From Candidatus Aenigmatarchaeota archaeon (lineage in GTDB: Archaea; Aenigmatarchaeota; Aenigmatarchaeia; QMZP01), in the NCBI GenBank assembly GCA_016185435.1, contig JACPNN010000013.1, forward strand, positions 3,396 to 67,395: a DNA stretch of 64,000 nt, given 5' to 3'. A model generated the notes under the pieces. The model did not search any database, was not told the origin of the DNA, and worked only from the letters and a program-made list of their open reading frames with translations. Positions 3,696-62,834 of this stretch are shown in pieces (position 1 is the stretch's first letter; each line of letters starts with the position of its first letter). Position numbers and translations under genes: made by a program.

Positions 3696-4463
3696 ATGAA
3701 TTGGATGCCTATGGGAAGGGAAACAGACAGGGAGGCCATTGCAAATCTGGAGAGAAGGCTGGAGGAGACCATAGATGATTTCGGCCCTCCTGAATGCGGA
3801 AGAACAGCGGCAATCATCGCCCCAAATGTGGGCAATGAACCCGTTTTCATAAAGAACATCTCCAATGTTTCAACAGCCCTACCCCACCTCGGCTTCACGA
3901 GACTTTACATTGTGTCTTCAGAAGAGGGATTGGCAGAAGCTTCCAGCCCACCGGCGCTCGCTTTCAAATATTTCAGGGGGTATGCTCCGACAAAAAGAGG
4001 CATGGAGGACTGCGTTTCAGGCATGGGGAAGGCAGTAAAGCAGGGCGATATATTGGCCATTTACATGACCGGCCATGGCTACAGGAGCTTCTTTGGAAAG
4101 TCGCGCATGACACTTGAGAATGGCACTCTGACTGACAGGGCCCTTGCCCGAATGCTTCACGAAGCACTGTCTCAAAAGGAGCCCATAGGCAGAATTGTCG
4201 TAGCTGACCAGTGTTACGGGCTGGGATTTGTCCGGAAGCTGGAGTCAGAAGTCTACAGGGGCATTGCAGCGTCTGAAGAGGGGACATCCGACAGAACATT
4301 TTCCAGAGCCTTTTTCCGGGCCCTGATAAGGAAAAGGAATCTGAAGGGGGCCTTTGAGCTTGCAAAACAGAACGATTATTTCTCAAGGAAAGGAGAGCAT
4401 GTGCTGGCCTTTGTGTCCTCGGCGGAAAGGAAAGGCTACACTCATATTAGGGGTGCGACATAA
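3696..4463 (+). CDS. Caspase/legumain (clan CD) fold peptidase-like protein
   Basis: IYMTGHG His motif followed by VVADQCYG Cys motif. Confidence 0.65.
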   Translation: MNWMPMGRETDREAIANLERRLEETIDDFGPPECGRTAAIIAPNVGNEPVFIKNISNVSTALPHLGFTRLYIVSSEEGLAEASSPPALAFKYFRGYAPTKRGMEDCVSGMGKAVKQGDILAIYMTGHGYRSFFGKSRMTLENGTLTDRALARMLHEALSQKEPIGRIVVADQCYGLGFVRKLESEVYRGIAASEEGTSDRTFSRAFFRALIRKRNLKGAFELAKQNDYFSRKGEHVLAFVSSAERKGYTHIRGAT

Positions 4464-4510
4464 TATTATGAGGGAAATGACGGCAGGGAGCAATATAGAC
4501 GCCTACAGAA

Positions 4511-5758
4511 TCAGCTCATGTATCCGCTCTCCTGCTGGTGCCTTAAGAGGGCTTCCCTGCACATTCTGGAGAATTCATCCATGCTTTCTTTTGACGCCAC
4601 AGAATCCAGCTTTTCCCTTCTCATAGCCAGAAATTCAGCGTGGTCAGGCATTATCACATTATCCAGTGCCCTCTCTCTGACGCCATTACGCTCTTTAACC
4701 TCCGCAAACCCCAGCGCATAAAGCCATCTCTCCATATATCTTTCATAGAATTTCCTGCCGCTTTCAGTAAGCTCCAGTTCTGAAAATTCCTCCCGGGTTC
4801 GGCCTTCCTCAACCTTGATCATGTTTGCCTTTCTTAGTATGGGGAGAATTGAACCAACAGTACTTTTATTGATTCCTGTGATTTCAGATACCCCCCTTGC
4901 GCTTAAAGGCTTCTTCCTGTCTCTCAGGCATGACATTACATTTTCAGCATACATTTTATAAATTGCCAAACTTTCTTTTTCATAGTCTCCCATAAGCCTC
5001 CTGACCCTTCTAGGATCAAGAGGGCTTCCCTCTGCTTTTGGTACGACTTTCATCTCATCTTCAGGGTGCTTGGCCTCATAATGGACAAGGCCTGTCTCTG
5101 CGAGTCTCGGCAGATTATGATTTACCAAAGATTTACTCAATTCTCTGTACTCTCTGCTCTTTCTTCTAAATCTGCCAGCATCAAACTCGTAATAATCGTC
5201 AATAATGTCCATGAGCCTGACTGTTTGTCCTTCTACTGTATTTTCATGCAGCCATGCAAGAATCATAAGGGTTGTGAGAGGCGCATATCTTTTTCCCGAA
5301 GAGTGTGCGGCACCAAAAATTTTATAAGCAGAGCTTTTAGTCAAGCCAGATGATGATTCCTCAAGGCACAGGAAGGCTGTGGCATCTCCCAGTAAAGCTC
5401 CTAAAGGCGTTTTCCTGTATCCATTGACTTTTCTCTCGGCAAGGCCTGTTTTCTTTTTTACCCTTGCCTTTTCAGCCAGCGGGATTGTGAGCTGCAGGAT
5501 TGCATAATCGAAATAATCGCTAACAAGTTTGTCTCCTAATACTCTCAGATAATCTTCAAGCAGGATTCCAAGAACATTGTTGACCTTTTCTGCAATATAG
5601 TGCGGAGACTCTCCACCGAGAGGTGTTTCCAGCAAAGTCAGGGCCTTCCTCGGATTGTTTCCGCATGCCCTTAACAGGGAACCTGAATACTCCCCAAAAG
5701 TCTTTGGCTCGATTATCCTGTCCCATGAATAGCCTTCAATCTGGCAGGTTGGAATCAT
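4511..5758 (-). CDS. Uncharacterised multi-winged-helix DNA-binding protein, copy 1
   Basis: LSARGVSEITGINKSTVGSILPILRKANMI HTH and ELELTESGRKFY wing; start MIPTCQ chosen by alignment with copy 2. Confidence 0.75.
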   Translation of the reverse strand: MIPTCQIEGYSWDRIIEPKTFGEYSGSLLRACGNNPRKALTLLETPLGGESPHYIAEKVNNVLGILLEDYLRVLGDKLVSDYFDYAILQLTIPLAEKARVKKKTGLAERKVNGYRKTPLGALLGDATAFLCLEESSSGLTKSSAYKIFGAAHSSGKRYAPLTTLMILAWLHENTVEGQTVRLMDIIDDYYEFDAGRFRRKSREYRELSKSLVNHNLPRLAETGLVHYEAKHPEDEMKVVPKAEGSPLDPRRVRRLMGDYEKESLAIYKMYAENVMSCLRDRKKPLSARGVSEITGINKSTVGSILPILRKANMIKVEEGRTREEFSELELTESGRKFYERYMERWLYALGFAEVKERNGVRERALDNVIMPDHAEFLAMRREKLDSVASKESMDEFSRMCREALLRHQQESGYMS

Positions 5759-5770
5759 AATTACTCTGTG

Positions 5771-5787
5771 ATAGTTAAATTTATAAA
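5771..5787 (-). promoter_or_regulatory. Putative TATA-box promoter of the wHTH gene (also at 7159-7175)
   Basis: TTTATAAATTTAACTAT is identical upstream of both diverged paralogs, about 25 nt before the ATG. Confidence 0.5.
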
Positions 5788-5898
5788 TATTCTCAGAATT
5801 GTGTCCTCGGCGGAAAGGAAAGGCTACGCTCATATTAGGGGTGCGACATAATATTATGAGGGAAATGACGGCAGAAAGCAATATAGACGCCTACAGAA

Positions 5899-7146
5899 TC
5901 AGCTCATGTATCCGCTCTCCTGCTGGTGCCTTGAGAAGGCTTCCCTGCACATTCTGGAGAATTCATCCATGCTTTCTTTTGACGCCACAGAATCCAGCTT
6001 TTCCCTTCTCATGCCCAGAAATTCAGCGTGGTCAGGCGTTATAACATTATCCAGTGCCCTTTCCCTGACGCCATTACGTCCCTTTGCCTCTTCAAAACCC
6101 AGAGCATAAAGCCATCTTTTCATGTATCTTTTATAGAACTCCCTGCCGTTTTCAGTAAGCTCCAGTTCGGAATATTCCTCCAGGGTTCGGCCTTCCACAA
6201 CCTTGATCATGTTTACCTTTCTTAGCATGGTGAGAACTCCACGAACAAAACTTTTATTGATCCCTGTTCTCTCAAATGTCTCGGCTGCGCTTAAAGGCTT
6301 CTTCCTGTCTCTCAGGCATGACATTACATTTTCAGCATACATTTTATAAATTGCCAAAGTTCCTTTTCCATACTCTCCCATAAGCCTCCTGACCCTTCCG
6401 GGATCAAGAGGGCTTCCCTCTGCTTTTGGTGCGACTTTCATCTCATCTTTACTATGCTTGGATTTATAACTGACAAGACCTGTCTCTGCGAGCCTCGGCA
6501 GATTACAATTTGACAAAGATTCACTCAATTCATTGTACTCTCTGCTATCTCTTCCAAACCTGTCAACATCAAACTCGTAATAATCGTCAACAAAGTCCAT
6601 GAGCCTGATTGTTTGTCCTTCTTTTGTTTTTTCATGCAGCCAAACAAGAATCATAAGGGTTGTGAGAGGCGCATATCTTTTTCCCCGAGAGTTCGCGACA
6701 CCAAAAATCTTATAGGCAGAGCTTTTAGTCAGGCCAGATGATGATTCCTCAAGGCACAGGAAGGCTGTGGCATCTCCCAGTAAAGCTCCTAAAGGCGTTT
6801 TCCTGTATCCTTGGACTTCTCTTTCTGCCAGGCCTGTTCTCTTTTTTATCCTTGCCTTTTCAGCCAATGGCAATGTAAGCTGAAGTATTGCATTATCGAA
6901 ATAACTGATAACCGTATCACCTCCTAACCCTCTCAGATAGTCCTCAGGCAGGATTCCAAGAACATTGTTGACCTTTTCTGCAATATAGCGCGGAGACTCT
7001 CCTCCGAGAGGTGTTTCCAGCAAAACCAATGCCTTCCTCGGATTGTTTCCGCATGCCCTTAACAGGGAACCTGAATACTCCCCAAAAGGCTTTGGCTCGA
7101 TTATCCTGTCCCATGAATAGCTTTTTATCTGATCTGAATGAATCAT
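5899..7146 (-). CDS. Uncharacterised multi-winged-helix DNA-binding protein, copy 2
   Basis: Colinear paralog of 4511-5758 with identical length. Confidence 0.75.
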   Translation of the reverse strand: MIHSDQIKSYSWDRIIEPKPFGEYSGSLLRACGNNPRKALVLLETPLGGESPRYIAEKVNNVLGILPEDYLRGLGGDTVISYFDNAILQLTLPLAEKARIKKRTGLAEREVQGYRKTPLGALLGDATAFLCLEESSSGLTKSSAYKIFGVANSRGKRYAPLTTLMILVWLHEKTKEGQTIRLMDFVDDYYEFDVDRFGRDSREYNELSESLSNCNLPRLAETGLVSYKSKHSKDEMKVAPKAEGSPLDPGRVRRLMGEYGKGTLAIYKMYAENVMSCLRDRKKPLSAAETFERTGINKSFVRGVLTMLRKVNMIKVVEGRTLEEYSELELTENGREFYKRYMKRWLYALGFEEAKGRNGVRERALDNVITPDHAEFLGMRREKLDSVASKESMDEFSRMCREAFSRHQQESGYMS

Positions 7147-7181
7147 AATCACTTTATAATAGTTAAATTTATAAAATATAC

Positions 7182-7484
7182 TTGCCCAAAAAGTTCTCAG
7201 AGGGGGGGGAGGCCAGGCTTCTCCTGGTCTATGAGCAGACCATACTTTCCAAGGAAAGGACTGCCCTCAGCTTCATGCAGATAGGGCTGGTGTTTGTCGG
7301 CCTCGGGCTTGGCCTGATTGCTGTTTACCTGCAGAACCACATAATCGGCCTCGCAATAGGCTTCTTCCTTATAATAGTCGGCTGGCTCGAGATGATGGAA
7401 TCGCATGCCAAGCTGAAGAAATACGGCAGCTTGTTGGATGAGGTGAAGGCGAAGCTGAGGAAGATAGGGGTGGAGGTCGCTTAG
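7182..7484 (+). CDS. DUF202/YidH-family small membrane protein
   Basis: TILSKERTALSFMQIGL motif and two TM helices; TTG start. Confidence 0.8.
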   Translation: MPKKFSEGGEARLLLVYEQTILSKERTALSFMQIGLVFVGLGLGLIAVYLQNHIIGLAIGFFLIIVGWLEMMESHAKLKKYGSLLDEVKAKLRKIGVEVA

Positions 7485-7504
7485 AAGCCACTGATTCGGC
7501 TTTT

Positions 7505-17308: not shown

Positions 17309-17367
17309 AGCAATTCATGCAAAACTCAGAAATTTAAGCTTCTGCCACGTCATTTAACACAATATTT

Positions 17368-17388
17368 GCAATCCTAGTCTGCTGCCTC
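17368..17388 (-). repeat. Duplicated 3' end of nre (21 bp identical to 18296-18316)
   Basis: gcaatcctagtctgctgcctc occurs at both positions and brackets the methyltransferase gene. Confidence 0.85.
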
Positions 17389-17412: not shown

Positions 17413-18270
17413 ATGAATGCAATTGCTGATATGGTGGGAGAAAAAAATATAGCCGACTACTATGACAACTGCGAAATCGATTACAGGCTTATCTGGGACC
17501 TGAAAAGAAGCATGTCGATACACTATGGATACTGGGATAAAGGCACAAGGAACCTCCATGATGCTCTTCTCAACACCAATCGCATAATGGCCCGGAGGAT
17601 AGGGATCAGTAGAAGGGACCACGTCCTTGATGCAGGCTGCGGTGTTGGAGGCTCTTCGATATTTCTTGCAAGGAACTATGGCTGCACTGTGGAAGGGATA
17701 ACGCTCAGCAGGCGACAGGTCAGGAAGGCAAGGCTGAATGCTGAAAGGCATGGGGTTGGCGGGAGTGTTTCGTTCCATGTCGGGAATTTCATGGATACAG
17801 GCTTCCCTGACGGGTCCTTTGATGCCATCTGGGCCATCGAAAGCGTATGCCATGCAGACAGAAAAGCAGATTTCATGAAAGAAGCATATAGGGTTCTCAA
17901 AGAAGGGGGCAGAATTGTGATTGCGGATGGTTTCAAAGCAGAGGGTATAGAGCCGGAGGAAGAAAAGCTGCTGGAAAAAATGATCAGGGGATGGAGCGTC
18001 CCCAATCTCTCAACTGTTAATGCTTTCTGCAGGAGCATGCGAAAAGTAGGTTTCAGGAATGTAAAAATGACAGATGAGACCCTGCACATATTGCCTTCTT
18101 CCAGGAGGCTGTATTATGCGTCTTTTCCAGGCTTGCTGATCACCAAGCTTGGCGAAGTTGCCCGCATAAGAAACAGAATACAGACGGCCAATGTTATGGC
18201 AGCTTATTATCAATACAAGGCCCTCAGGAAAGGTGTCTGGAGATACGGCCTCGTGTCGGCAGAAAAATGA
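17413..18270 (+). CDS. SAM-dependent methyltransferase (tocopherol/sterol MT-like)
   Basis: IHYGYW, VLDAGCGVGG and FDAIWAIESVCH motifs. Confidence 0.9.
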   Translation: MNAIADMVGEKNIADYYDNCEIDYRLIWDLKRSMSIHYGYWDKGTRNLHDALLNTNRIMARRIGISRRDHVLDAGCGVGGSSIFLARNYGCTVEGITLSRRQVRKARLNAERHGVGGSVSFHVGNFMDTGFPDGSFDAIWAIESVCHADRKADFMKEAYRVLKEGGRIVIADGFKAEGIEPEEEKLLEKMIRGWSVPNLSTVNAFCRSMRKVGFRNVKMTDETLHILPSSRRLYYASFPGLLITKLGEVARIRNRIQTANVMAAYYQYKALRKGVWRYGLVSAEK

Positions 18271-18282: not shown

Positions 18283-19440
18283 TCACACAAAACTCGCAAT
18301 CCTAGTCTGCTGCCTCATATGCCTGAGAAGCCTGCTTTCTGCCCTGTACCTCTCCATGGGCAGTGCAAGCCTTGATGATATGTATTCCAGTGCTGCCATT
18401 AAATTTGAAAATCCTGCAGGTTTCGACTGCATGGCCTTTCTGGTCTCTTCCCTGCACAGCCATACTCCTGTCGGAATGTAGCCTCTGTAAGCTTCTCGGA
18501 ATACAACCACTCCTGCCTGTTTCTGCATTCTTTCCAAGGCTTCAAGAACGGCAAATTTCACTGAATAAAAACAACCTCCTACAGAAGAGTATCCGGTCTT
18601 TCCGGTGTACGGCTCCCAGTCCGAGAACAGGAGCTCCTCACTGCCCATCACATGGAGGAAGGTCTCCATCCATTCGTACTGCCAGTAAGTGGGCAAAAGA
18701 AGTATCACGAAATTGTTCTTCATGGCCTGGAACTGGTACGCCTGATATGTGTCAATCATTTCATATTCCTTCACCTTTTTCAGCAAATAGCCGGCCAAAG
18801 TATCATCAACCGCTGTTATGCTCCATCTTGTCGGGACAAGCTTCCTGTTCTTCCCGAGGCCCATCGTGCCGACTGAAAAGGCCTTCTGTATCTGGGAGAA
18901 CAGGAGATTTTTGTTGTATAAATCAACAACAGCTTCAGCCGCTTTTAGGTCAGCGTCATAATATACTTTTTCCAGTTGATACTCCCATTTGACATTTGAG
19001 AAATCAAGAGATTTTATGGGTGCAGATGGGCCAAATGGGCTGTGGTCCATGTTGAATGTGACGCCTCTTGGCCTGCTCTTGAATTCGGCCTCTGTCTCTG
19101 GGGACTGTTTTGCTATAGCTATTTCTTGCAGCTGGCTGACGAATCTGCTGTCAAGATCCTTTATTGAGACAAGGGATTTTCCTCTCACCAGCTGCAGTCT
19201 GAAATTCACAATTGTCTGCAAGAATCTGTTATCCAGCCAGCCTTCAGGCGTATCGAGGCCGGATGTGTCGCCATGAGACGGGGTAAGCATCGGCCCAGCA
19301 TACACTTTAGGATAGCCTGACCGGCCGATAAAGACAGAAGGAGGGGAAGTCCCTTCAAGCCTCTCGCCGACTTCCACAGACCTGAAGCGGCCTGTCCTTG
19401 AGGTGAGCTTTTTCAGGTAAACGCCCTTGCCGATGGCCAT
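18283..19440 (-). CDS. nreA: Nre-family archaeal DNA repair protein
   Basis: SPPSVFIGRSGYPKV, RKLVPTRWSITAVD and C-terminal PIP-like QTRIASF. Confidence 0.88.
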   Translation of the reverse strand: MAIGKGVYLKKLTSRTGRFRSVEVGERLEGTSPPSVFIGRSGYPKVYAGPMLTPSHGDTSGLDTPEGWLDNRFLQTIVNFRLQLVRGKSLVSIKDLDSRFVSQLQEIAIAKQSPETEAEFKSRPRGVTFNMDHSPFGPSAPIKSLDFSNVKWEYQLEKVYYDADLKAAEAVVDLYNKNLLFSQIQKAFSVGTMGLGKNRKLVPTRWSITAVDDTLAGYLLKKVKEYEMIDTYQAYQFQAMKNNFVILLLPTYWQYEWMETFLHVMGSEELLFSDWEPYTGKTGYSSVGGCFYSVKFAVLEALERMQKQAGVVVFREAYRGYIPTGVWLCREETRKAMQSKPAGFSNLMAALEYISSRLALPMERYRAESRLLRHMRQQTRIASFV

Positions 19441-52196: not shown

Positions 52197-52242
52197 TATG
52201 AGAATGCTGATTCAAAGTGGCTGAATGAGGGATAAAGGAAAT

Positions 52243-55221
52243 ATGGCCGAATACAACCATCTGAAAATCGAAGGTGAAATTCATCAAAAGTGGAAAGCAG
52301 AAAGAGTAGCTGAAAAGATAGTCGATACGGACTGGAAAAGGAAGAAATTCTATCTCCTCGACGGCCCGCCATATGTGAATGGCGTCCCCCATGTCGGCCA
52401 TGCCAAAACCACGGTATTCAAGGACATCTGGGGGAAGTTCAAATTCATGCAGGGCTTCGGGGTATGGTTCCAGCCGGGTTTCGACTGCGGCGGCCTGCCT
52501 ATTGAGAACAAGGTGGAAGAGAAATTGGGCATAAGAAGCAAGACTGAAATTGAGACTAAGGTGGGGGTGGACAGGTTTATAGAGGAATGCAAGTCCTTCG
52601 CCAAAGGGAATGAGCCTGTATGGCTTGATTTTTACAAAAAGATAGGGGCCTGGAGAGGATGGATGGAACCCTATCTGACTTCAGAAAACTATTACCTTGA
52701 ATCAGGCTGGTGGACAGTCAAGCAATGGCATGACAAAGGCCTGTTTTCAGAGGGCCTGAGGCCGGGCTTCTGGTGCCCCCGCTGCGAGACAGTCCTGGCC
52801 GGGATAGAGGTGACTGAGAGCTACAAGAACCTGGAGGACCCCTCCATCTTTGTCAAGTTCCCAATAGAAGACAAAAAAAATAAGGGCAAGGAATTTCTGC
52901 TTGTCTGGACCACTACGCCCTGGACCCTTCCTGCAAATGTTGCAGTTGTCGCCCATCCCGATGAGACATATGTAAAGGCTGATGTGAACGGGGAAAAACT
53001 GATACTGGCTGAAAAGCTGCTCCCTGAAATTGAAAATAAAGGATTTTCATGTAAGATTCTGGAAAAATTTTCAGGCAAAAAACTGGATGGAATCAAATAC
53101 AAGCCTGTACTTGATCTGCCGGTTCAAAAGGAAATATCAGACTCGCCAAAAGCCCATACTGTATTGCTGTCAATCCCTGTCATGAAGAGGAGGGTGGCCA
53201 GCAAGACGCAGGTAAAGAGTGAAATAGGAGAATCGGATGAATTCGGCCACATGGTGACAATGGAGGCTGGGACAGGGCTGGTGCATACTGCCCCTGGTCA
53301 CGGCGATGCGGACAGCAGGGTCGGGAAGCATTATGGGCTTCCAGAACCCTCTCCTGTTGATGAGAAAGGAAGATTTACTGAAGAGGCTGGAGATCTGGCT
53401 GGAATATTTGTGAAAAAAGCGGATCCTCTGATAATTGAAAAGCTAAGAAAAAACAATCTTCTGCTATATTCAGGAAAAATAACCCACTCATATCCCCTGT
53501 GCTGGAGGTGCAAGACGCCTCTGATATACAGGATGAGCAGGCAGTGGTTCCTGAAGATGGATCTGCTGAAGGAAAAGATAATAGACGCCAACAAAAAACT
53601 CAGATGGCTGCCTGAATTCGCAAGGGAGCAGTACAATAACCTGATTTCTGAGGCCCCGGACTGGGCTGTCACGAGGCAGAGATACTGGGGAATCCCTTTG
53701 CCGATATGGAAGTGCGGGAGGTGCAATTCAATGAAAGTAATTGGCTCGAGGGAGGAATTAAGGAAAAATTCAGTTGAAAAAATTCCCGAAAACTTCGACC
53801 TCCACAAGAACCTTGTGGACAGGGTAAAATTGAAGTGCACTAACAAAGGCTGCGAAGGGAAAATGGCCAGGGAGAAGGACATCATGGACGTCTGGTTCGA
53901 CTCGGGAATAGCGCCATGGGCCTCGCTTGGCTATCCTTTCAGGAACAAGGAATTATTCGAAAAGCTGTGGCCTGTAGACCTTGTGAATGAGGGCCAGGAC
54001 CAGGTAAGGGCGTGGTTCAACACCCTGATGGTGTGCGGCTTTGCCACTTTTGGCAGGGAGCCGTACCGGACTGTCTGCCTCAACGGCTGGACCCTGGATG
54101 AGAAAGGGGAGAAGATGAGCAAGAGCCTGGGGAATGTGATACTGGCCGAAGACGCCTGCAGGCAGCTCGGAGCAGACGTCATGAGGCTCTATATCTGCCA
54201 TGATGTGGCCCCATGGGAGACCCAGAAGTTCAGCTTCAGGCAGGCCGGCGATCTGAAGAGATTCATGAATGTATTATGGAACACCTATAATTTTGCGGAG
54301 ACGTATGCTGCAAAGGAAGAGTATGCAGAAAAGGCAGAATTAAAAATAGAGGACAAGTGGATAATTTCAAAAATAAATTCCATAAACAAATCAGCCACAA
54401 ATCATATAGAGAATTTCGAGTTCCATCTGGCCGCGAGGGAGCTGGTAGATTTCCTTCTGAATGACCTCTCAAGGTGGTATATCAAAATTATAAGAGACAG
54501 GCTCGCCCCAACATATTGGAAGGAAGACAAGAAAGCGGCATCCTTTGCCCTGAGATATGTCCTTGAGAGATATTCAGTTTTGCTGTCTGTATTTTCCCCC
54601 TTCATTTCTGATGCAATATATTCAAAACTCAGGGGAAAAGGCAGCGTGCATCTTGAGGAGTGGCCAAAGCCTGAGGAAAGCAGGATAGGAAAGGGCCTCG
54701 AGGATCATATGGAAAAGGCAAAAGTGGTTGTAGAGGCCATAAATGCCGCAAGGTCTGAGAAAAAGGTGAAGCTGAGGTGGCCTGTCGAATATGTAAGGAT
54801 AAAATTCAAGGATAAGGAAGACATCAAATCAATAGATTCTGTAAAGGATGTAATAGCCTTGCTTTCCAATTCCAAATCAATAGAGATGTCGGACAGATTG
54901 AAGGAGCCTTTTGAATTCTCCCTGGGCAAGCTCGAAATAGGCAAAGTCCTGATGGACAAGGCCGTAATAAGGGAGATAATAAGGCACGTGCAGGAGCTGA
55001 GGAAGAAGGCCGGGATGAATGTGCATGAGAAGATTGAGCTTTTCATCAAATCTGACCCTGAATCAGAAAAACTGGCGGAAAAAAACAGGCAGGAACTTCT
55101 TTCAGGGGTGAATGCATCCAAAATAAATATCGGCCAGGTCCCTGAAAAGCACAAAAAGGAAAGGCTTGAGGTGGAGGGGAAGGTTTTTGAGATTGGTTTT
55201 GTCAATACAAATCAAAATTAA
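52243..55221 (+). CDS. ileS: Isoleucine--tRNA ligase
   Basis: DGPPYVNG..HVGH, WTTTPWTLP, GTGLVHTAPGHG, RQRYWG and KMSKS. Confidence 0.97.
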   Translation: MAEYNHLKIEGEIHQKWKAERVAEKIVDTDWKRKKFYLLDGPPYVNGVPHVGHAKTTVFKDIWGKFKFMQGFGVWFQPGFDCGGLPIENKVEEKLGIRSKTEIETKVGVDRFIEECKSFAKGNEPVWLDFYKKIGAWRGWMEPYLTSENYYLESGWWTVKQWHDKGLFSEGLRPGFWCPRCETVLAGIEVTESYKNLEDPSIFVKFPIEDKKNKGKEFLLVWTTTPWTLPANVAVVAHPDETYVKADVNGEKLILAEKLLPEIENKGFSCKILEKFSGKKLDGIKYKPVLDLPVQKEISDSPKAHTVLLSIPVMKRRVASKTQVKSEIGESDEFGHMVTMEAGTGLVHTAPGHGDADSRVGKHYGLPEPSPVDEKGRFTEEAGDLAGIFVKKADPLIIEKLRKNNLLLYSGKITHSYPLCWRCKTPLIYRMSRQWFLKMDLLKEKIIDANKKLRWLPEFAREQYNNLISEAPDWAVTRQRYWGIPLPIWKCGRCNSMKVIGSREELRKNSVEKIPENFDLHKNLVDRVKLKCTNKGCEGKMAREKDIMDVWFDSGIAPWASLGYPFRNKELFEKLWPVDLVNEGQDQVRAWFNTLMVCGFATFGREPYRTVCLNGWTLDEKGEKMSKSLGNVILAEDACRQLGADVMRLYICHDVAPWETQKFSFRQAGDLKRFMNVLWNTYNFAETYAAKEEYAEKAELKIEDKWIISKINSINKSATNHIENFEFHLAARELVDFLLNDLSRWYIKIIRDRLAPTYWKEDKKAASFALRYVLERYSVLLSVFSPFISDAIYSKLRGKGSVHLEEWPKPEESRIGKGLEDHMEKAKVVVEAINAARSEKKVKLRWPVEYVRIKFKDKEDIKSIDSVKDVIALLSNSKSIEMSDRLKEPFEFSLGKLEIGKVLMDKAVIREIIRHVQELRKKAGMNVHEKIELFIKSDPESEKLAEKNRQELLSGVNASKINIGQVPEKHKKERLEVEGKVFEIGFVNTNQN

Positions 55222-55286: not shown

Positions 55287-55745
55287 ATGCAAGACAAAAA
55301 AAGCGGATGGGATACACTGCCTATTGCAATAAGAACTGTGATTATAATATTTGTTGCCAAAGCTCTTCTCGGCGTTTTTGCAATAATGGTTTTGTCAGCT
55401 TCAATGCCAAGTGTTACCCTTGGGACTACATCTGGCCAGGAAATGAAGCCCCTTTCATCCTTCGATTATGTGGGAAGTGCCGTGGCATCTTCAGTTTTTT
55501 ATGCGCTTATAGCTCTCTATTTCATAGAACCTCTCCTTTATTTAGGTGCGGCGATACTCTTACAGTCAATGACCAGAATTAGCTTCTATCTGGCCGCATT
55601 CTTATCTTTATTGTCACTGCTTAGCATACCATTGGGGACAGTTCTTGGGTTGGTATCACTCTATCTGCTGATTTCAAGTATGGAATATTTCGGCTTTAAG
55701 CAGGTTCACAATAAGCCAGTTACTGAAAAACCAGGAAAGGCTTGA
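55287..55745 (+). CDS. Hypothetical membrane protein (cargo between ileS 3'-end repeats)
   Basis: About 4 TM helices with SIPLGTVLG; stop codon lies inside the distal repeat. Confidence 0.7.
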   Translation: MQDKKSGWDTLPIAIRTVIIIFVAKALLGVFAIMVLSASMPSVTLGTTSGQEMKPLSSFDYVGSAVASSVFYALIALYFIEPLLYLGAAILLQSMTRISFYLAAFLSLLSLLSIPLGTVLGLVSLYLLISSMEYFGFKQVHNKPVTEKPGKA

Positions 55746-55791
55746 GGTGGAGGGGAAGGTTTTCGAGATAGGATTTGATAAAACAGATTAA
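55733..55791 (+). repeat. Duplicated 3' end of ileS (31 bp identical to 55157-55187, then diverged, with its own stop)
   Basis: Encodes ERLEVEGKVFEIGFDKTD* versus ERLEVEGKVFEIGFVNTNQN* in the gene. Confidence 0.92.
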
Positions 55792-56429: not shown

Positions 56430-56436
56430 GCGAAAT

Positions 56437-57305: not shown

Positions 57306-57315
57306 GAGACGTATA

Positions 57316-58227: not shown

Positions 58228-58287
58228 ATTAAATATTCGGGGGAGAAGAATTTAAAGAAATTTTCTGCCAGCGGAGACGGCCAGTCA

Positions 58288-58410: not shown

Positions 58411-58586
58411 TGACCGGCCTGTGATTCTCCTGCCGCATTGCCTGAAGCCTCAGGCTGGCCGCCAACAGGATTGCCGCAGGACGGGCAAGCGTCATCATCA
58501 GGCCCGCAGTATTCATCGCATATGAAGCAGTACCTAAGGCCTGTCTCATCCTTTTCTTCCCGCTTCTTCTTCGGCTTTCTCTTCAT
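58407..58586 (-). CDS. 59-aa zinc-ribbon microprotein
   Basis: MKRKPKKKREEKDETGLRYCFICDEYCGPDDDACPSCGNP... Confidence 0.65.
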   Translation of the reverse strand: MKRKPKKKREEKDETGLRYCFICDEYCGPDDDACPSCGNPVGGQPEASGNAAGESQAGQ

Positions 58587-58622
58587 AGCTGTAAATTGAA
58601 ATTGGATGGGTGTTTTAAATCT

Positions 58623-58925
58623 TCAGACGTCCACAAGGATATCCTTCCCTCTCACTTCCACCCTGTAAGTCTCGATTTTCAGTCCGGGAACAGTCCTGCA
58701 TGAGCCTGTCTCGACATCGAACTGCCAGCCGTGGAGGGGGCATGTTATCACATTGTCCTCAAGGCTCCCTTGCCCCAAAGGTCCCTGCTCATGGGCACAT
58801 GCGTTTGTCGTGGCAAATATCTTCCCGCTGACATTGTAAAGTGCTATCTCTTTTCCGCTGACGATTACTGTTCTCGCTTCTCCCGGCTTCAGATTATCCA
58901 GAGTAGCGACCTTTACAAGTGCCAT
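58623..58925 (-). CDS. Rieske [2Fe-2S] ferredoxin
   Basis: CAH...CPLHGWQFD. Confidence 0.93.
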   Translation of the reverse strand: MALVKVATLDNLKPGEARTVIVSGKEIALYNVSGKIFATTNACAHEQGPLGQGSLEDNVITCPLHGWQFDVETGSCRTVPGLKIETYRVEVRGKDILVDV

Positions 58926-58990
58926 AAATCCCCTTGAAATTATGTTCTGATTATTAAAAAGAACGGTTTCCGGCGCTAAGCAGGAATTCG

Positions 58991-59434
58991 TCAGCCCTTC
59001 ACCGCAAGCTCCTCCAGCGGCCTTCTTGAGACCGAGCCTGAGCTCAAAGGGTGCCAGTGGCTTATCCCTGTTTCTCCCCGCTTCCAGCAGAGGAAGACGA
59101 GCTCACCGCTCCTGTCGTAATAGAAGTCCACAAGGCCTTTGTCGAGGTCTTTGACTATGCATCCATGGCTGCTGATGGCCCCTATCTCTGCCTTGATTGA
59201 AAGGGCTGCAGCCTGCTTCTTTTCCATGCTCTGCCTGTACAGCTTATTGTCGATGTTTGCCTCCTGAAGAAGCTCCTCGCCCCATATCTCGTAAAGAGTC
59301 TCCATGTCCCTGTCGAGCTGCTTCATCCTCATCTTGAGGCCTGCTATCTTGTGAAGGGCGGCCTCGAGAAAAGGGAGGAGCCTGTTGGCCTCTTCAACCG
59401 TGAACGTCCTCACAAAGCCTTTCTGGCTGTCCAT
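58991..59434 (-). CDS. DUF2203 family protein
   Basis: FTVEEANRLLP, VKDLDKGLVDF and LCWKRGE. Confidence 0.88.
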   Translation of the reverse strand: MDSQKGFVRTFTVEEANRLLPFLEAALHKIAGLKMRMKQLDRDMETLYEIWGEELLQEANIDNKLYRQSMEKKQAAALSIKAEIGAISSHGCIVKDLDKGLVDFYYDRSGELVFLCWKRGETGISHWHPLSSGSVSRRPLEELAVKG

Positions 59435-59572
59435 ACTGATATATATGGCTGCGAACTTTTATATTGGTTTTTGGCGCAGGCCTGCCGCCAAGGAAGATGC
59501 CAGTTTTCATATAACATGAAAAACAGCATACAGGATCTTTAATGCGCACATGAAATCATAATATAGCGGCCC

Positions 59573-59962
59573 TCATTCGACAGCCCTGCTGAACTTCTTT
59601 TTCAGGTCGAAATAGCACTCCACATGCGGGTATTCGAGCATTTCCCTGATGAAGGCCTTTCCTGTCGTGGCTTCCTTTTTATCAATCGGGATTGCCTTTG
59701 CCCTGATATTGTTCCCGACAAGGGTGTCTATTATGGAAGGGTGGGCAGGCATGCCGGAAGGCATAAATCTTTTGCAGCCCTTTGTTCCGTTGATATCGTA
59801 GCTGCCGGCCATGGGAGATATTTTCCTGTAGCGCCCTTCTGCTGTCGCCCTCAGGCCGCAGCCATAGCGTACTCCGCCTTCCCTATTCATGCCTATGGCC
59901 TGATGCCTGCAGAAGTCAGGCAAGATTCTTAACCTTTCCAGGAGGAAATCAGCGCCTTCCAA
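59573..59962 (-). CDS. Hypothetical Cys-containing protein
   Basis: ORF divergent from the ATPase genes; start uncertain. Confidence 0.5.
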   Translation of the reverse strand: MEGADFLLERLRILPDFCRHQAIGMNREGGVRYGCGLRATAEGRYRKISPMAGSYDINGTKGCKRFMPSGMPAHPSIIDTLVGNNIRAKAIPIDKKEATTGKAFIREMLEYPHVECYFDLKKKFSRAVE

Positions 59963-60003
59963 TAAATTTAAACCATCCCCGGCAATAATTATACCTGACG
60001 GGT

Positions 60004-60345
60004 ATGGAAAAGGAGAAGGTTTTGATTGCGATAAAGGAGGCTGAGGAAAAGGCCAGGAAGAACGTGGCCGGCGCCGAGACCAGGAAAGCTTCCATTGTCA
60101 GCGATGCAGTTGAAAAGTCAATTGAGAGGGAGAAGGCCGAGACAGAATCGTATGTGAAGCAGCTTGCCATGAAAGAGCAGAAGGAAAAGGAGGCGATAAA
60201 AGAGAGCGCCAGGGATATAATCGAAAAGGGCAGGAGAGAGGCTGACAGCTTCTCCAGGCTTGCGAAAAGGAACTGGGCTTCATCACTCAGCCAGCTCGGG
60301 AAGGAATTTGAGGCGTTTTTGAGGCAGATCGCCAGGGAAGGCTGA
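60004..60345 (+). CDS. A/V-type ATPase subunit H/G (peripheral stalk)
   Basis: Charged coiled coil IKEAEEKA directly upstream of subunit I. Confidence 0.75.
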   Translation: MEKEKVLIAIKEAEEKARKNVAGAETRKASIVSDAVEKSIEREKAETESYVKQLAMKEQKEKEAIKESARDIIEKGRREADSFSRLAKRNWASSLSQLGKEFEAFLRQIAREG

Positions 60346-60350
60346 TTTCT

Positions 60351-62162
60351 ATGTTCTACCCCGAAGAGATGCAGAAAGCTTTTATCGCCGTGCACAAGTC
60401 CAGACAGAAACAGGTGATAGAGGAGCTTTACAGGCTCAGGGCAGTGCACGTGAAAGAGCATGAGTCAACAGATGGTTTCCCTATAGGCTTCCCTCTGGAG
60501 GGCGCCGAAGAGCTTTCTGAGCTGCTCCTGAGGCTGAAATCCATAAGGGCGGCCCTTGGCATAGGCGGCCAGAAGGCAGGCGCAGAAGGCATCAGCATAC
60601 AGCAGGTAAAGGATCTGGAAAAGGGCCTTTCGGCAAGATTGGGCCCTCTCCTGGAAGAGCTGAAATCGCTGTCTGACAGCCTTTCTGCTGAGCAGTCGAA
60701 GCTTGAGTCGCTGAATTTTCTGCGCAGAGCCGGTATAAAGCGGCTTGACGTGCTGCGCGAGTATGAGGGGCTTGAAATAATATCAGGATATGCGAGGATT
60801 TCTGAATTGAAGGCCAGGGATTGCATAGCCTTCATTGAGAAGGTGGGAAAAGAGAAGGCCTTTGTCCTTTTTGCAAAAAAAAAGGAATCGGGCAGAATAA
60901 AGGAAAGGCTGGCAAAAGCAGGCTTTGCGGAATTCAGGCCGAATCTGGATGCGAGGGGGCAGGTTTCAGAAGAGATAGTTAAGCAGGAAGAGATCATATC
61001 CAGGCTGCTGGAAAAAAAGAGCGAATTGGAAAAAAAGCTTGCCGGGATGCGCGGGGAATATCAGGATAGGGTTTCAGATTCGGTCTTCTGGCTCGGGGAA
61101 AGGCTGAAGATAGCTGAACTGCCGCTTAAACTGGGGGCAAGCTCAAGCGTCGTGCTCATTTCAGGATGGATACCCAGGAAAAGCCATGAGGCGGTGTCAA
61201 AGGCTTTGCGAAAGGCTGCCCCGAACTCCTATATCCGTTTTGAGGAAACTGATGACGCGCCTACGAAGATGGACAATCCCGTTCTGGTAAGGCCTTTTGA
61301 GTTCTTCGTGAACCTCTATTCAACTCCGGCCTACAGGGAGATCGACCCCAGCTTCCTGATTTTCCTCACCTTCCCCCTCTTCTACGGCATGATACTGGGG
61401 GACATAGGGTACGGCCTGATTGTCCTTCTCCTGGCCCTCGGGATAAGGCTCGGCACGGGCAAGGCAAGGCCCATAGCTGACGTGACCATACTTTCAGCCC
61501 TTGTGGCCATAGCCTTTGGCTTCCTGTTCGGAGAGTTCTTCGGCCATGAAGAGGTCTTTGGTTACCCGCTTGAGCCCGTCATAAGCAGGGTTCATGATCT
61601 GAACAGCGTATTGCTGCTTTCTGTGGTGATAGGCCTTGCGCACCTGAGCCTTGGCTACATATTTGCCATAAAAAATGAGATAGGGCATAACTGGAAGCAC
61701 GCGATTTTCGGAAAGACAGGATGGCTGCTGGTTGAAGTCGCTTTCGCTTTCCTGCTGTTTGACCTTCTGTTCAAAATAAGGTTCCTTGACACAATGGCTT
61801 CCTTTGGGATACTTGCCATGGGGGCACTACTTGTCGCTTTAGGGGAAGGCGTGATGTACCTGATTGAAATTCCTTCTCTTCTCTCCAATATCGTCTCGTA
61901 CACACGATTGGCTGCCTTCGGCCTCGCAGGCACGAGCATAGCCATAGTCGTGAATACGACTGCCGGCCAGATGTTCGAGAGCGGGGGATTTATGACCGTA
62001 GCGGGCATATTAGTCCTTGTTGTAGGCCACGCATTCAATCTGGCTCTGGCCATGCTGGACTCCTTCCTCCAGTCGCTCCGACTGCACTATGTGGAGATGT
62101 TCTCCAAGTTCTATAAGGGGGCCGGGAAGGCTTACAGGCCGTTTGGCGGGGGGCAGGGCTGA
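60351..62162 (+). CDS. atpI: A/V-type ATPase subunit I
   Basis: PAYREIDP, GMILGDIGYG, VSYTRL and LRLHYVEMFSKFY. Confidence 0.95.
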   Translation: MFYPEEMQKAFIAVHKSRQKQVIEELYRLRAVHVKEHESTDGFPIGFPLEGAEELSELLLRLKSIRAALGIGGQKAGAEGISIQQVKDLEKGLSARLGPLLEELKSLSDSLSAEQSKLESLNFLRRAGIKRLDVLREYEGLEIISGYARISELKARDCIAFIEKVGKEKAFVLFAKKKESGRIKERLAKAGFAEFRPNLDARGQVSEEIVKQEEIISRLLEKKSELEKKLAGMRGEYQDRVSDSVFWLGERLKIAELPLKLGASSSVVLISGWIPRKSHEAVSKALRKAAPNSYIRFEETDDAPTKMDNPVLVRPFEFFVNLYSTPAYREIDPSFLIFLTFPLFYGMILGDIGYGLIVLLLALGIRLGTGKARPIADVTILSALVAIAFGFLFGEFFGHEEVFGYPLEPVISRVHDLNSVLLLSVVIGLAHLSLGYIFAIKNEIGHNWKHAIFGKTGWLLVEVAFAFLLFDLLFKIRFLDTMASFGILAMGALLVALGEGVMYLIEIPSLLSNIVSYTRLAAFGLAGTSIAIVVNTTAGQMFESGGFMTVAGILVLVVGHAFNLALAMLDSFLQSLRLHYVEMFSKFYKGAGKAYRPFGGGQG

Positions 62163-62163
62163 C

Positions 62164-62493
62164 TTATTTCAGCTTCAGGAGGTTCCTGAGAATTTCGTCA
62201 ATCTTCTCCATAATTTTCGGCTCCAGTTTGCCTATCCTGGTTTTCAGCCTTGCCTTGTCAATCGCCCTTATCTGGAACACGAGAGCGACAGATTCATCGC
62301 TCAATCCATTTGCAGGAGATGGAGATAAAGTAAGGGTATAGCCAAACCTCAAAGCCTGAAGGTTTGATGTGACCGGTATGACTATGCATATTGAAGTCTG
62401 GGTGTCTGAAATCAAAATTGCGGGTCTTGTGCCAATCTGTTCATGGCCCGAAGTTTCTGCCAAGTTTACTATCCAGATTTCCCCTTTTTCCAT
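62164..62493 (-). CDS. mazF: MazF/PemK-family toxin
   Basis: KGEIWIVNL, GHEQIGTRPAILIS, PVTS and QIRAIDKARL. Confidence 0.92.
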   Translation of the reverse strand: MEKGEIWIVNLAETSGHEQIGTRPAILISDTQTSICIVIPVTSNLQALRFGYTLTLSPSPANGLSDESVALVFQIRAIDKARLKTRIGKLEPKIMEKIDEILRNLLKLK

Positions 62494-62702
62494 AACTGGC
62501 TCTCAAAATTTGCCCAGGCCTCATCGCTGAGATTCTCCCAGGCCTGCAGTTCAAGCTTCAAACTCAAATTCTTGCTTATTGTGTCCAGATAGAACAGGAG
62601 GGCTTGGTTTACCACTTCATTTTCATTCAGGCCCAAAGCATGCGCAGCTTCTCCTACCTTTTTCTCGACTTCCTGTGAAAGTTTCACTTGCATGGCATTC
62701 AC
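62469..62702 (-). CDS. Cognate antitoxin (RHH-like)
   Basis: Overlaps the mazF start; WENLSDEAW tail. Confidence 0.75.
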   Translation of the reverse strand: MNAMQVKLSQEVEKKVGEAAHALGLNENEVVNQALLFYLDTISKNLSLKLELQAWENLSDEAWANFESQLWKKGKSG

Positions 62703-62774
62703 CTGCTAATAATTGTTTGCCTCCCGCTTTAAATATGCCGATGTATATCTTTTCAATGCCTGTCAAGTCATCCA

Positions 62775-62834
62775 ATGTTCTCCAAGTTCTACAGGGGGGC
62801 CGGGAAGGCTTACAGGCCGTTTGGCGGGGAATAA
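62775..62834 (+). repeat. Duplicated 3' end of atpI (copy of 62097-62153, with its own stop)
   Basis: Encodes MFSKFYRGAGKAYRPFGGE* versus MFSKFYKGAGKAYRPFGGGQG* in the gene. Confidence 0.93.

Follow-up and report, generated by a model that had tools for sequence, protein, structure and literature searches.

Short accessory cassettes, predominantly toxin-antitoxin pairs, are inserted at the very end of housekeeping genes in the genome of a Candidatus Aenigmatarchaeota archaeon, where each appears to have brought a replacement gene end and pushed the old end downstream. The kind of scar is known and its density here is new. The scar is unusually frequent in this genome and no integrase gene stands beside the cassettes. 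The data point to conserved gene ends as landing pads and suggest that ordinary recombination with DNA of close relatives, and not a cassette-borne enzyme, does the work.

The analysed stretch of DNA (the window) comprised 64,000 nt of assembly GCA_016185435.1 (contig JACPNN010000013.1, positions 3,396 to 67,395, forward strand). The host genome (G000) is a 23-contig, 1.35-Mb assembly from a groundwater metagenome. It was compared with a sister species of the same genus (G001) and with two relatives from the same family (G002 and G131). In the following, R1 is the proximal copy of a gene end, R2 the distal, displaced copy, X the cargo between them and Y an accessory segment beyond R2.

Duplicated gene ends in the window

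Four repeat pairs with offsets of 1388, 928, 576 and 678 nt had been noted, and all of them were present: at locus 1 (4411–4710/5799–6098, 300 nt shown, 94%), nre (17357–17388/18285–18316, 32 nt, 91%), ileS (55157–55215/55733–55791, 59 nt, 86%) and atpI (62097–62151/62775–62829, 55 nt, 96%), respectively. At nre, ileS and atpI, an in-frame copy of the last codons (32–59 nt) lay 576–928 nt downstream, past a cargo of one or two genes. Pfam matches agreed with the names originally given to these three genes and to the methyltransferase and mazF cargo. Direct reading of the translations confirmed that the three distal copies stay in frame to a stop codon. The bracketing layout had been proposed for four loci; it stood for these three, and locus 1 proved to be a head-to-tail duplication of a 1388-nt unit with a wHTH gene.

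The nre locus contained the following features:

17334..17388, minus strand, displaced nre end (R2), in frame RQQTRIANIVLNDVAEA to a stop codon, original stop lost; abuts an HTH_3 gene (16832–17308)
17413..18270, plus strand, cargo, SAM-dependent methyltransferase of 285 aa (Pfam), convergent with nre
18283..19440, minus strand, nreA-type host gene with Nre_N and Nre_C (Pfam)
18285–18316, minus strand, R1, the last 10 codons of nre

Before their stop codons, the two nre ends read RQQTRIASFV (R1) and RQQTRIANIVLNDVAEA (R2). The best metagenome-contig relatives of the methyltransferase were at most 48% identical to it, and an nre gene stood beside such relatives in none of 80 metagenome loci. 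Each distal copy had been described as followed by a further accessory gene. This was the case at ileS and at locus 1 but not at nre, where the HTH_3 gene next to R2 is conserved in G001.

The ileS locus contained the following features:

52225..55221, plus strand, class I aminoacyl-tRNA synthetase gene (ileS) of 998 aa, with an anticodon-binding domain (Pfam)
55157–55221, plus strand, R1 (repeat alignment)
55287..55745, plus strand, cargo ORF of 152 aa, no Pfam family; putative membrane protein
55733..55791, plus strand, displaced ileS end (R2), in frame ERLEVEGKVFEIGFDKTD to a stop codon
55863..56429, plus strand, ORF of 188 aa in segment Y behind R2, no convincing family; absent from G001
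56440–56547, minus strand, Cys-rich (zinc-ribbon-like) gene of 35 aa, convergent with ileS; also in G001

The last codons of the cargo ORF are read out of frame into the displaced ileS end, and weaker, indel-bearing homology extended about 30 nt further upstream of R2. The ends terminate in ...GFVNTNQN (R1) and ...GFDKTD (R2), each followed by a stop codon. In G001, the ileS stop is followed by 17 nt and then by the convergent 35-aa Cys-rich gene, so the whole stretch from 55222 to about 56440 is missing there.

The atpI locus contained the following features:

60351..62162, plus strand, A/V-type ATPase subunit I gene (atpI) of 603 aa, V_ATPase_I (Pfam)
62097–62162, plus strand, R1 (repeat alignment)
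62164–62493, minus strand, cargo, MazF/PemK toxin gene (Pfam)
62469–62702, minus strand, cargo, 77-aa ORF upstream of the toxin gene; the cargo as a whole spans 62164..62702
62775..62834, plus strand, displaced atpI end (R2), MFSKFYRGAGKAYRPFGGE followed by a stop codon

The 77-aa ORF presumably encodes the antitoxin. The two atpI ends finish with ...GGGQG and ...GGE, respectively, before the stop codon. A search of 200 other genomes of the class turned up MazF homologs in 11, in none of which the homolog lies beside atpI; 14 genomes sampled from the archaeon's own family gave none.

Locus 1 contained the following features:

3696..4463, plus strand, host ORF of 255 aa, no Pfam family; its last 53 nt are the start of the duplicated unit
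4411..5798, no strand assigned, tandem unit 1 of 1388 nt, with a copy of the host ORF end and wHTH gene copy 1
4511–5881, minus strand, ORF of wHTH gene copy 1; 417 aa from the likely start
5799..7186, no strand assigned, tandem unit 2, with the second host-end copy (5799–5851, in frame to TAA) and wHTH gene copy 2
5899–7152, minus strand, wHTH gene copy 2, within tandem unit 2

The repeat was no short bracket of last codons, as had been thought, but covered the entire unit (1377 nt aligned at 89%), and the supposed cargo gene and the gene after it are wHTH paralogs with 82% identity over 417 aa. Locus 1 is thus a tandem duplication of a gene end together with its cassette. A head-to-tail repeat of a whole unit with homologous content was seen, among the four loci, here only. 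The G001 region orthologous to the host ORF aligned to window positions 3006–4469 at 85%, and both tandem units were absent from G001.

Frequency in the genome and in its relatives

The last 66 nt of 988 genes (at least 150 aa) were used as probes for direct copies within 5 kb downstream (score of at least 18). Copies were found with 21 end probes, compared with 7 mid-gene, 7 5'-end and 0 reversed probes. The end alone recurred, with no copy of the rest of the gene, for 16 of 988 ends versus 1 of 988 mid-gene probes (Fisher p = 0.0003; reversed-probe control, 0/988), which bore out the expected genome-wide enrichment over controls. We judged 11 of the 16 loci to be clean. Three others were tandem- or paralog-like (C17:148852, C22:6940, C22:71490), one had a distal copy that reads on without a stop (C19:5185) and one was weak, with a score of 18 (C23:111196). 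Behind one gene, three ends formed an array (C7:94929–97282), which is sequential use of one site.

The same scan returned 1 of 642 genes in G002 and 2 of 699 in G131, one of the latter two over a masked run of N. With almost no cases in these family relatives, the gene-capture route cannot be called general, as it had been.

The anchor genes belong to the conserved core and include Rad50, Lhr, RtcB, two ribonucleotide reductases (RNR), IleRS, AtpI and NreA. Displacement affected only the last 10–35 codons, and the protein encoded by the new end is the same. The cargo measured 0.5–2.2 kb throughout, with one to four small genes each, mostly HEPN-MNT, MazEF or PIN modules.

Empty sites had been anticipated in related genomes, and the sister species G001 was indeed empty at ileS, Lhr, RNR, Rad50 and locus 1. 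At RtcB it had the same cargo and R2. At atpI its own pair of gene ends enclosed a different cargo of 170 aa, and at nre a remnant occupied the same place as R2 beside another cargo, an HTH-nucleotidyltransferase gene. No complete integrative element was present in the G001 loci examined.

Origin of the duplicated ends

In all 11 clean loci, the homology between R1 and R2 stopped close to the last base of the stop codon, from 11 nt short of it to about 1 nt past it, while the repeat length varied from 27 to 105 nt. A boundary at the stop codon is expected where two versions of one coding end precede different DNA; a randomly placed target duplication would not yield it. Among the codons differing between R1 and R2, 47 of 81 (14 loci) and 24 of 42 (11 clean loci) differed synonymously, compared with 22% predicted for random substitution (p = 4e-12 and 1e-6, respectively). 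Against the fairer null in which only R1 is constrained (about 40%, our estimate), the bias was less decisive and indeed marginal, with p = 0.0008 over all 14 loci, 0.018 over the clean ones and 0.07 once the PQQ locus was left out. All six differing codons were synonymous at RNR, where the stops are TAA and TGA, as were all three at RtcB. At Rad50, R2 together with 80 nt of its flank aligned with the G001 gene end and flank, including the same TGA stop, and R1 ends in TAG. At RNR, four sites of R2 and two of R1 agreed with G001. In these two comparisons R2 is probably the resident end. Three clean loci had identical or nearly identical copies and were hence uninformative on origin; perfect repeats occurred at Lhr (30/30) and at a DUF7502 gene (35/35).

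Since the homology ends at the stop codon in every clean locus and the differences are mainly synonymous, homology-anchored uptake from relatives fits best among the three routes of the original prediction. We give about an even chance to the reading that the scars reflect gene-end displacement at strain-variable insertion hot spots, anchored by homology and fed by DNA from close relatives. What follows on donor, joining step, enzymes and the part played by the toxins is our inference. The incoming DNA, be it of a sister chromosome or of a close relative, would carry the same conserved gene end followed by a different accessory cassette. It would pair with the resident gene through the gene-end homology, and illegitimate joining would link its non-homologous far end to that gene, a few tens of bases short of the stop codon. 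The layout would then be gene, R1 (imported end), X (new cassette), R2 (resident end), Y (older cassette) and conserved neighbour, with the gene intact and the old end remaining as a dead in-frame stub. Partners with the same cassette would produce a tandem duplication, as at locus 1, and repeated rounds would produce arrays of stubs. A cassette-borne recombinase would be unnecessary, as host homologous recombination and microhomology end-joining would suffice. Toxin-antitoxin cargo would stabilise the insert against loss through recombination between R1 and R2.

This route would amount to homology-facilitated illegitimate recombination, reportedly described in 2002 by de Vries and Wackernagel and by Prudhomme et al., and in 2003 by Meier and Wackernagel. 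A variant would be a single crossover with a small circle that has one copy of the repeat. ILLEGITIMATE joining does occur in G000, as the locus 1 junction enters the last 53 nt of the upstream gene. The donor arrangement (gene, R1 and X without R2) was not found among the MazF genomes and the metagenome methyltransferase loci, a weak search because the relatives are distant (at most 59% identity for MazF and, as above, 48% for the methyltransferase). Generic host recombination should, however, scar relatives too, and G002 and G131 are nearly free of scars. This near-absence may only reflect cassette load, as MNT-type matches numbered 29 in G000 and 27 in G001 versus 2 each in G002 and G131 (1–16 among 29 relatives), and it leaves room for a lineage-specific factor.

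The main rival reading, possible though doubtful, is site-specific recombination. The inserts would be miniature elements, either decayed remnants or integrase-less and mobilised in trans (CIME-like), with R1 and R2 as attL and attR and an attP that includes the end of the target gene, like elements integrating in the 3' ends of tRNA or protein genes. The anatomy matches that of archaeal elements integrated in 3'-distal parts of protein genes, and the repeat lengths lie within the archaeal att range quoted in the same source (PMC6563490). Arrays, and different cargo at the same site in two species, are what re-used att sites typically show. Such elements often carry toxin-antitoxin genes, which would outlast their other parts, and a lineage-specific feature suits a lineage-specific agent. 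Against this, at least 11 unrelated targets would need many specificities. Genome-wide profile searches for seven recombinase and transposase families returned two genes for tyrosine recombinases and single matches to rve, Cas1 and a DDE transposase, the last of them partial; serine, IS110 and Y1 enzymes were absent. The matches were at C6, C17, C23 and C7:113308, all outside the window, so the statement that the window contains no recombinase holds for these seven families. The search for tyrosine, serine and IS110-type enzymes that had been recommended thereby left a programmable IS110-type recombinase, another of the three routes, unsupported. PF00589 matched only at C6 and at C17:90.6 kb, PF00239 nowhere, and Cas1 only at C23:168.5 kb; the rve and the partial DDE match sit away from cassettes. 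Between G000 and G001, the DNA stretch with the C6 tyrosine recombinase gene is 85% identical and the protein 97%. The protein is also 63–74% identical in four other genera and present in the nearly scar-free G131. It looks like a conserved chromosomal gene.

The inserts themselves also spoke against att-type integration. No cargo contained an integrase match at E ≤ 0.01, and no repeat-bracketed element of 8–100 kb was found at the end of a large gene, the one exception being a weak C22 pair of 39–40 nt at the 3' end of a gene for 944 aa. The cargos were mutually unrelated and their ends had no common motif (no 8-mer common to at least 4 of 22 cargo ends), and the repeat cores likewise had none, in line with the description of the cores as unrelated. 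A cargo size of 0.5–2.2 kb throughout would be odd for independent decay.

It is unlikely that the cassettes of the genus form an integrase-free, 'self-addressed' population in which every toxin-antitoxin or defence module carries a single copy of a conserved host gene's last codons. Such a cassette would exit as a small circle by recombination between its flanking repeats and re-enter a related genome by short-homology recombination at the gene end, and its toxin would punish cells that lose it. If true, this would be a distinct mode of toxin-antitoxin mobility without a dedicated recombinase, and it would explain the ready spread of such modules in genomes poor in classical mobile elements.

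We consider duplication in place improbable. Unequal sister exchange, or replication that switches to foreign DNA as template and resumes behind the break, would yield a long target-site duplication whose copies then diverge. Locus 1 is exactly such an event, a head-to-tail unit whose far flank is joined to the upstream gene end, and the perfect repeats at Lhr and the DUF7502 gene would fit as well. In another family, a perfect 28-nt repeat of sequence immediately upstream of rpl13 flanks a MazEF homolog on both sides, and 5' ends were also duplicated upstream (6 of 984 genes versus 2 for mid-gene probes). However, random placement should often pass the stop into intergenic DNA, which happened in 0 of 11 clean loci, the supposedly dead copy also changes synonymously (RNR, RtcB), and the stops and tails of R1 and R2 differ (Rad50, ileS, atpI).

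An artefact of assembling a strain mixture into one MAG is hardly credible: the assembly is a 23-contig metagenomic one, its identical cores of 31 and 35 nt could confuse a graph with k = 31, and Logan contigs break exactly at these cores, but in two runs the cargo contigs (55158–55762, 62122–62824) had a depth of 11.8–15.8 versus 12.8–14.4 for the flanks and about double (25–34) for core-only contigs, runs of a second study contained the same sequence at ≥99%, in the independently assembled G001 single contigs showed this architecture at atpI, nre and RtcB, and the two relatives scanned alike were nearly free of the pattern. Moreover, the cargo contigs continue at either end from sequence specific to the cargo into the repeat core, so the cargo is physically flanked by gene-end sequence in the reads.

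Relation to known systems

The classical bacterial gene-end target is icd, used by e14 and phage 21. CIMEs (ICESt1/ICESt3 paradigm) are cis-mobilisable, integrase-less inserts between att-like repeats at a gene 3' end and grow by tandem accretion. The cassettes resemble them in position and in lacking an integrase; unlike for CIMEs, no parent element with att site and integrase was found, nor any related complete element with the same att site, in a genus sampled by two genomes and thus weakly. In Neisseria, minimal mobile elements are different cassettes exchanged by homologous recombination at the same site between conserved genes. The cassettes likewise differ at one site, although minimal mobile elements are said to lack a duplicated gene end. 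Transposons or insertion sequences were rejected in view of the variable repeat length, the cargo ends without common sequence and the rve and DDE matches elsewhere. Integron gene cassettes were rejected in view of the missing attC-like site common to the cargo ends (the integrase was searched as PF00589).

Sequential, or C-terminal, displacement belongs to polymorphic-toxin loci; at Rhs loci it was reportedly described by Jackson et al. in 2009. The model, as outlined in PMC5361080, has been proposed for effector-immunity arrays of the type VI secretion system (T6SS) in Vibrio cholerae and for Rhs loci. Its features there include a conserved upstream anchor, the import of a new 3' end with new genes, an old end orphaned downstream, growth of arrays by repetition and no dedicated recombinase. 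Our loci likewise had a conserved anchor upstream and older ends downstream, also as arrays. They differ in that the anchor is the invariant end of a housekeeping gene and not a toxin gene with a variable tip, that only 10–35 codons are displaced and the same protein is encoded, and that the host is an archaeon and the cargo toxin-antitoxin and similar genes.

Replacement of gene ends by inserted DNA is a known signature of archaeal integrated elements. In Thaumarchaeota, 14 of 68 integrated elements were located in 3'-distal parts of protein genes, where the end is rebuilt with an alternative stop codon (Krupovic et al. 2019, PMC6563490). As described in that survey, direct repeats bracket the insert, the end is rebuilt, sometimes with another stop, close relatives have empty sites and one gene can be hit by unrelated elements (PMC6563490). 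The loci in G000 showed the same, with repeats placed as attL and attR would be, rebuilt gene ends and alternative stops at Rad50 and RNR. The elements surveyed are multigene and carry their own integrase or casposase (PMC6563490), unlike the small inserts here, and at least 11 different targets are used in one 1.35-Mb genome. In contrast to classic integrated elements of this type, no cargo here contained a match to a tyrosine or serine recombinase or a casposase.

The movement of toxin-antitoxin and small defence modules outside recognisable mobile elements is poorly understood, and G000 with its congener offers a dense natural series that combines 11 clean scars within 1.35 Mb, arrays, and sites that are empty or differently filled in the sister species. 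The family consists of reduced, symbiont-like archaea, and the cassettes account for part of this lineage's extra genome size. The scars also bear on annotation: the displaced stubs are gene ends that are in frame but dead, and ORFs that enter them, such as the ileS cargo ORF, are partly built of them.

Duplicated gene ends in the window and across the genome

The genome under study (G000; 1.35 Mb, 23 contigs, numbered with a C) had archaeal-type gene content, including NreA, A/V-type ATPase subunit I, RtcB and Lhr. The window corresponds to C7:3396-67395. The original prediction had placed four cassettes in the window, each bracketed by a second copy of the upstream gene's end, and all four repeat pairs (4411/5799, 18296/17368, 55157/55733 and 62097/62775) were present. 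The layout was as described at nre, ileS and atpI, with a 32–59 nt copy of the last codons downstream of the gene, in each case in frame and ending at a stop codon:

nre: copy 928 nt downstream; cargo, a SAM methyltransferase gene
ileS: copy 576 nt downstream; cargo, a 152-aa ORF of no known family
atpI: copy 678 nt downstream; cargo, a MazF toxin gene and a small upstream ORF

The feature was therefore real at three of the four loci. The remaining one (locus 1) was not a short bracketed cassette, since similarity spanned the whole 1388-nt unit (1377 nt, 89%). Each unit contained one wHTH gene, and the two proteins were 82% identical over 417 aa. Judged from this alignment, locus 1 is a head-to-tail duplication; its left edge, as it happens, falls 53 nt within the upstream ORF. 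Elsewhere in the window (1599–1681), four to five tandem 18-nt units (CCCTTCTGYTCCGTCYTY-like) were observed within a long minus-strand ORF (1589–3898).

A genome-wide comparison with controls was made on 988 genes of at least 150 aa, called crudely (greedily by length). The probes were the last 66 nt, a mid-gene 66-mer and the first 66 nt of each gene, plus reversed versions; a seeded ungapped scan kept the best direct match up to 5 kb away in either direction if it scored at least 18. Downstream recurrence was found for 21 of the 988 gene ends, 7 mid-gene probes, 7 5' ends and no reversed probe. After removal of tandem paralogs, 16 gene ends recurred alone, compared with 1 mid-gene probe and 3 5' ends. 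The excess of gene ends over mid-gene probes, anticipated by the original prediction, was significant (16 vs 1, Fisher p = 0.0003). Eleven of the 16 loci were judged clean from their alignments, having a short repeat and a distal copy not within a paralogous gene. In the mirror direction, upstream copies of the 5' end were present for 6 of 984 genes, compared with 2 when mid-gene probes were used.

Genes with recurring ends in G000
Clean loci (11), hosts: Rad50; Lhr; NreA; IleRS; AtpI; PQQ-propeller protein; RtcB; class II ribonucleotide reductase (RNR); cyclase; DUF7502 protein; NrdD
Set aside, tandem- or paralog-like: C17:148852; C22:6940; C22:71490
Set aside, distal copy continuing without a stop: C19:5185
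Set aside, weak: C23:111196
Upstream-duplicated 5' ends, inserts of 0.9–1.4 kb, two examples: C9:57817-57919/58695-58797; C7:105683-105937/107099-107353

The hosts were conserved core genes. One of them, the class II RNR gene (C17:38732-43330), encoded 1532 aa; an intein with a LAGLIDADG domain (Pfam) was also present in this gene. Outside the window on the same contig, three ends of one gene formed an array (C7:94929-97282, in the stretch C7:94929-98554). The 463-aa gene's own end was followed 1.4 kb on by a 107-nt copy (92.5%) and 0.8 kb further by a degenerate 39-nt copy. These copies represented the gene's last ~35 codons, and small ORFs of no known family lay between them. A similar end was found on a 413-aa paralog 4.2 kb upstream of the array.

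The cargo included genes for HEPN and/or MNT-type nucleotidyltransferases (four loci), MazEF, a MazE-like protein and a PIN protein, besides an ATPase_2 + DUF234 gene, a methyltransferase gene and several small ORFs of no known family. The ATPase_2 + DUF234 cargo occurred at the Rad50 locus and at the paralog-like C22:71490 pair, the latter outside the clean loci. The G+C content of the cargo was 0.40–0.475, compared with 0.44–0.48 for the contigs. The cargos had no sequence relationship to each other. Among 22 cargo ends, no similarity was detected and no 8-mer was common to four or more.

Empty sites in the sister species and distribution in the family

Nine loci were compared with the sister species (G001), the only other genome of the genus in the comparison. 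Empty sites, which the original prediction had expected in relatives, were found there at ileS, Lhr, RNR, Rad50 and locus 1. In G001, the ileS stop was followed after 17 nt by a convergent gene for a 35-aa Cys-rich (zinc-ribbon-like) protein, so the sequence corresponding to window 55222 to ~56440 was missing. At the Lhr and RNR sites, 1634 and 1523 nt were absent, respectively, and neither wHTH unit was present at locus 1. At every site empty in G001, the G000 insert consisted of the proximal gene end (R1), the cargo (X), the distal end (R2) and a second accessory segment (Y), and Y was likewise missing from G001. The Y segments held a 188-aa ORF, a PIN pair, an HNH pair, a 166+135-aa pair and the second wHTH gene. 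Their position behind the distal ends indicates that the sites are hot spots at which cassettes accumulate.

Other G001 sites were occupied. Its atpI gene (G001:C19:2650-3414) ended in KAYRPFGEKG and a stop, and a second end (KAYRPFGER and a stop) followed; between the two, on the opposite strand, lay a 170-aa ORF without a known family, distinct from the G000 cargo. At nre, the last 13 codons persisted as a remnant next to a conserved HTH_3 gene, and an HTH-nucleotidyltransferase gene replaced the methyltransferase gene. RtcB was followed by the same HEPN-MNT cassette and R2 as in G000, at 88% identity.

Two relatives of the same family were scanned identically. One end-only case, adjacent-paralog-like, was found in G002 (851,213 of 886,365 nt; 642 genes), and two were found in G131 (1,010,275 of 1,090,058 nt; 699 genes), one of which overlay a run of masked Ns. 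Together this was 3 of 1341 genes, compared with 16 of 988 in G000 (p = 0.0002). MNT-type nucleotidyltransferase (PF01909) matches numbered 29 in G000, 27 in G001, 2 in G002, 2 in G131 and 1–16 in the 29 other family genomes searched. HEPN-MNT-type modules were markedly expanded in the genus, which also had the largest genome of the family sample. The occurrence of scars thus parallels a build-up of toxin-antitoxin cassettes specific to this lineage.

In a genome of another family (G190, contig C42), a perfect 28-nt direct repeat (1025–1052/2055–2082) bracketed three ORFs: one for a MazF homolog (54% identical), the one upstream of it and one of 71 aa. The second repeat copy was directly upstream of the rpl13 start; thus, duplicated-target brackets extend beyond the genus and beyond 3' ends. 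No atpI was found near the 11 MazF homolog loci among 200 genomes of the class, and no nre was found at the 80 methyltransferase loci kept of 272 metagenome relatives (at most 48% identical), all of these relatives being too distant to decide on a donor arrangement. No description of the pattern in DPANN archaea or Aenigmarchaeota was found in the literature searched, mostly titles and the beginnings of abstracts.

Gene-end displacement and site-specific integration as candidate mechanisms

At all 11 clean loci, homology between R1 and R2 (27–105 nt) ended close to the final base of the stop codon, from 11 nt short of it to ~1 nt past it; at none did it run into the intergenic DNA beyond. A randomly placed target duplication would often overrun the stop, because containing the stop suffices to keep the gene intact. 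The observed boundary would be expected if R1 and R2 were two versions of the same coding end with different DNA behind each.

Codon differences between the copies were synonymous in 47 of 81 cases (14 loci) and in 24 of 42 (11 clean loci), compared with 22% for random substitution. Against a fairer null, with R1 constrained and R2 drifting (roughly 40% synonymous by our estimate), the p values were 0.0008 for the 14 loci, 0.018 for the clean loci and 0.07 without the PQQ locus. The bias is suggestive but not decisive.

With G001 as the outgroup, R2 looks like the resident gene end. At Rad50, R2 and 80 nt of its flank aligned with the G001 end and flank, both with TGA as the stop, whereas R1 had TAG. 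At RNR, R2 agreed with G001 at four sites and R1 at two, and every difference between the copies was synonymous, including two different stop codons. The nre stub in G000 had lost its stop and gained two replacement changes, in keeping with a dead copy. Illegitimate joining does take place in this genome: at locus 1, a far flank is fused to the final 53 nt of the upstream gene.

The best-supported explanation is gene-end displacement via homology-anchored recombination. A close relative, or a sister chromosome, would supply DNA with the same conserved gene and another cassette behind it. This DNA would pair with the resident copy through the gene, and its far end would be joined by an illegitimate event a short way upstream of the resident stop. 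Such displacement would account for the stop-codon boundary, the synonymous bias, the resident-like R2 and the R1–X–R2–Y layout, as well as for the arrays, the core-gene hosts and the lack of a common cassette end. Identical cassettes in both partners would give a tandem duplication, and locus 1 would be this special case. The same displacement model has been put forward for T6SS effector-immunity arrays and Rhs loci (PMC5361080).

The main rival reading has att-bearing mini-elements inserted site-specifically by an integrase acting in trans. Such an anatomy is documented for archaeal integrated elements, with 14 of 68 situated in 3'-distal portions of protein genes (PMC6563490), and a restriction to one lineage would suit this model as well. 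It has to reconcile the 11 or more unrelated targets with a pair of conserved recombinase genes and the lack of a parent element. Those two tyrosine recombinase genes (C6:6230-6865; C17, 90.6 kb) were found in six-frame searches of G000, together with one rve, one partial DDE_Tnp_1 and one Cas1 match. None of these lay in the cargo or, as originally stated, in the window. The IS110-type or serine enzymes suspected earlier were not found genome-wide, nor was a Y1 transposase. No convincing repeat-bracketed element of 8–100 kb was detected in G000; the only repeat pair in this range at the end of a large gene (944 aa, C22) was weak (39–40 nt).

The short C6 recombinase was considered as the cause and rejected on present evidence, as it looks like a conserved chromosomal gene and is also present in the nearly scar-free G131. 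Its DNA stretch was 85% and its protein 97% identical to G001, and orthologs (63–74% identical) occurred in four other genera; none was found in G002.

This kind of scar is already known, and G000 stands out by the density of scars, their toxin-antitoxin cargo and the archaeal host. With this series of loci, the mobility of toxin-antitoxin cassettes becomes testable.

Independent assemblies of the cassette region

Independent Logan contigs from four runs of two studies were compared over window 54500–63500. As is inevitable in a k = 31 graph, they broke off at the two identical repeat cores, of 31 and 35 nt. On both sides of the cargo contigs, cargo-specific sequence continued into the core, which shows gene-end sequence to be physically joined to the cargo at either end. 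As the contigs do not pair the two sides of the 31–35 nt cores, an integrated cassette and a circle look alike, and a small circle is also compatible with these data.

In one run of the second study (X6), a single 257-nt contig of depth 4 joined 62116 to 62795 (window 62007–62941). This hints at a real empty allele, an atpI site without the MazEF cassette, but with such low depth and a core (35 nt) longer than the assembler's word length, the contig may reflect a path through the graph.

The depth of the cargo contigs (55158–55762 and 62122–62824) was 11.8–15.8, compared with 12.8–14.4 for the flanks, and the cargo is carried by essentially all cells of the sampled population. Core-only contigs had about double this depth (25–34). 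An assembly artefact is a highly improbable source of the repeats, given the equal depth of cargo and flanks, the twofold depth of the cores, the same architecture inside single contigs of the independently assembled G001, and the near absence of the pattern from G002 and G131 under the identical scan.
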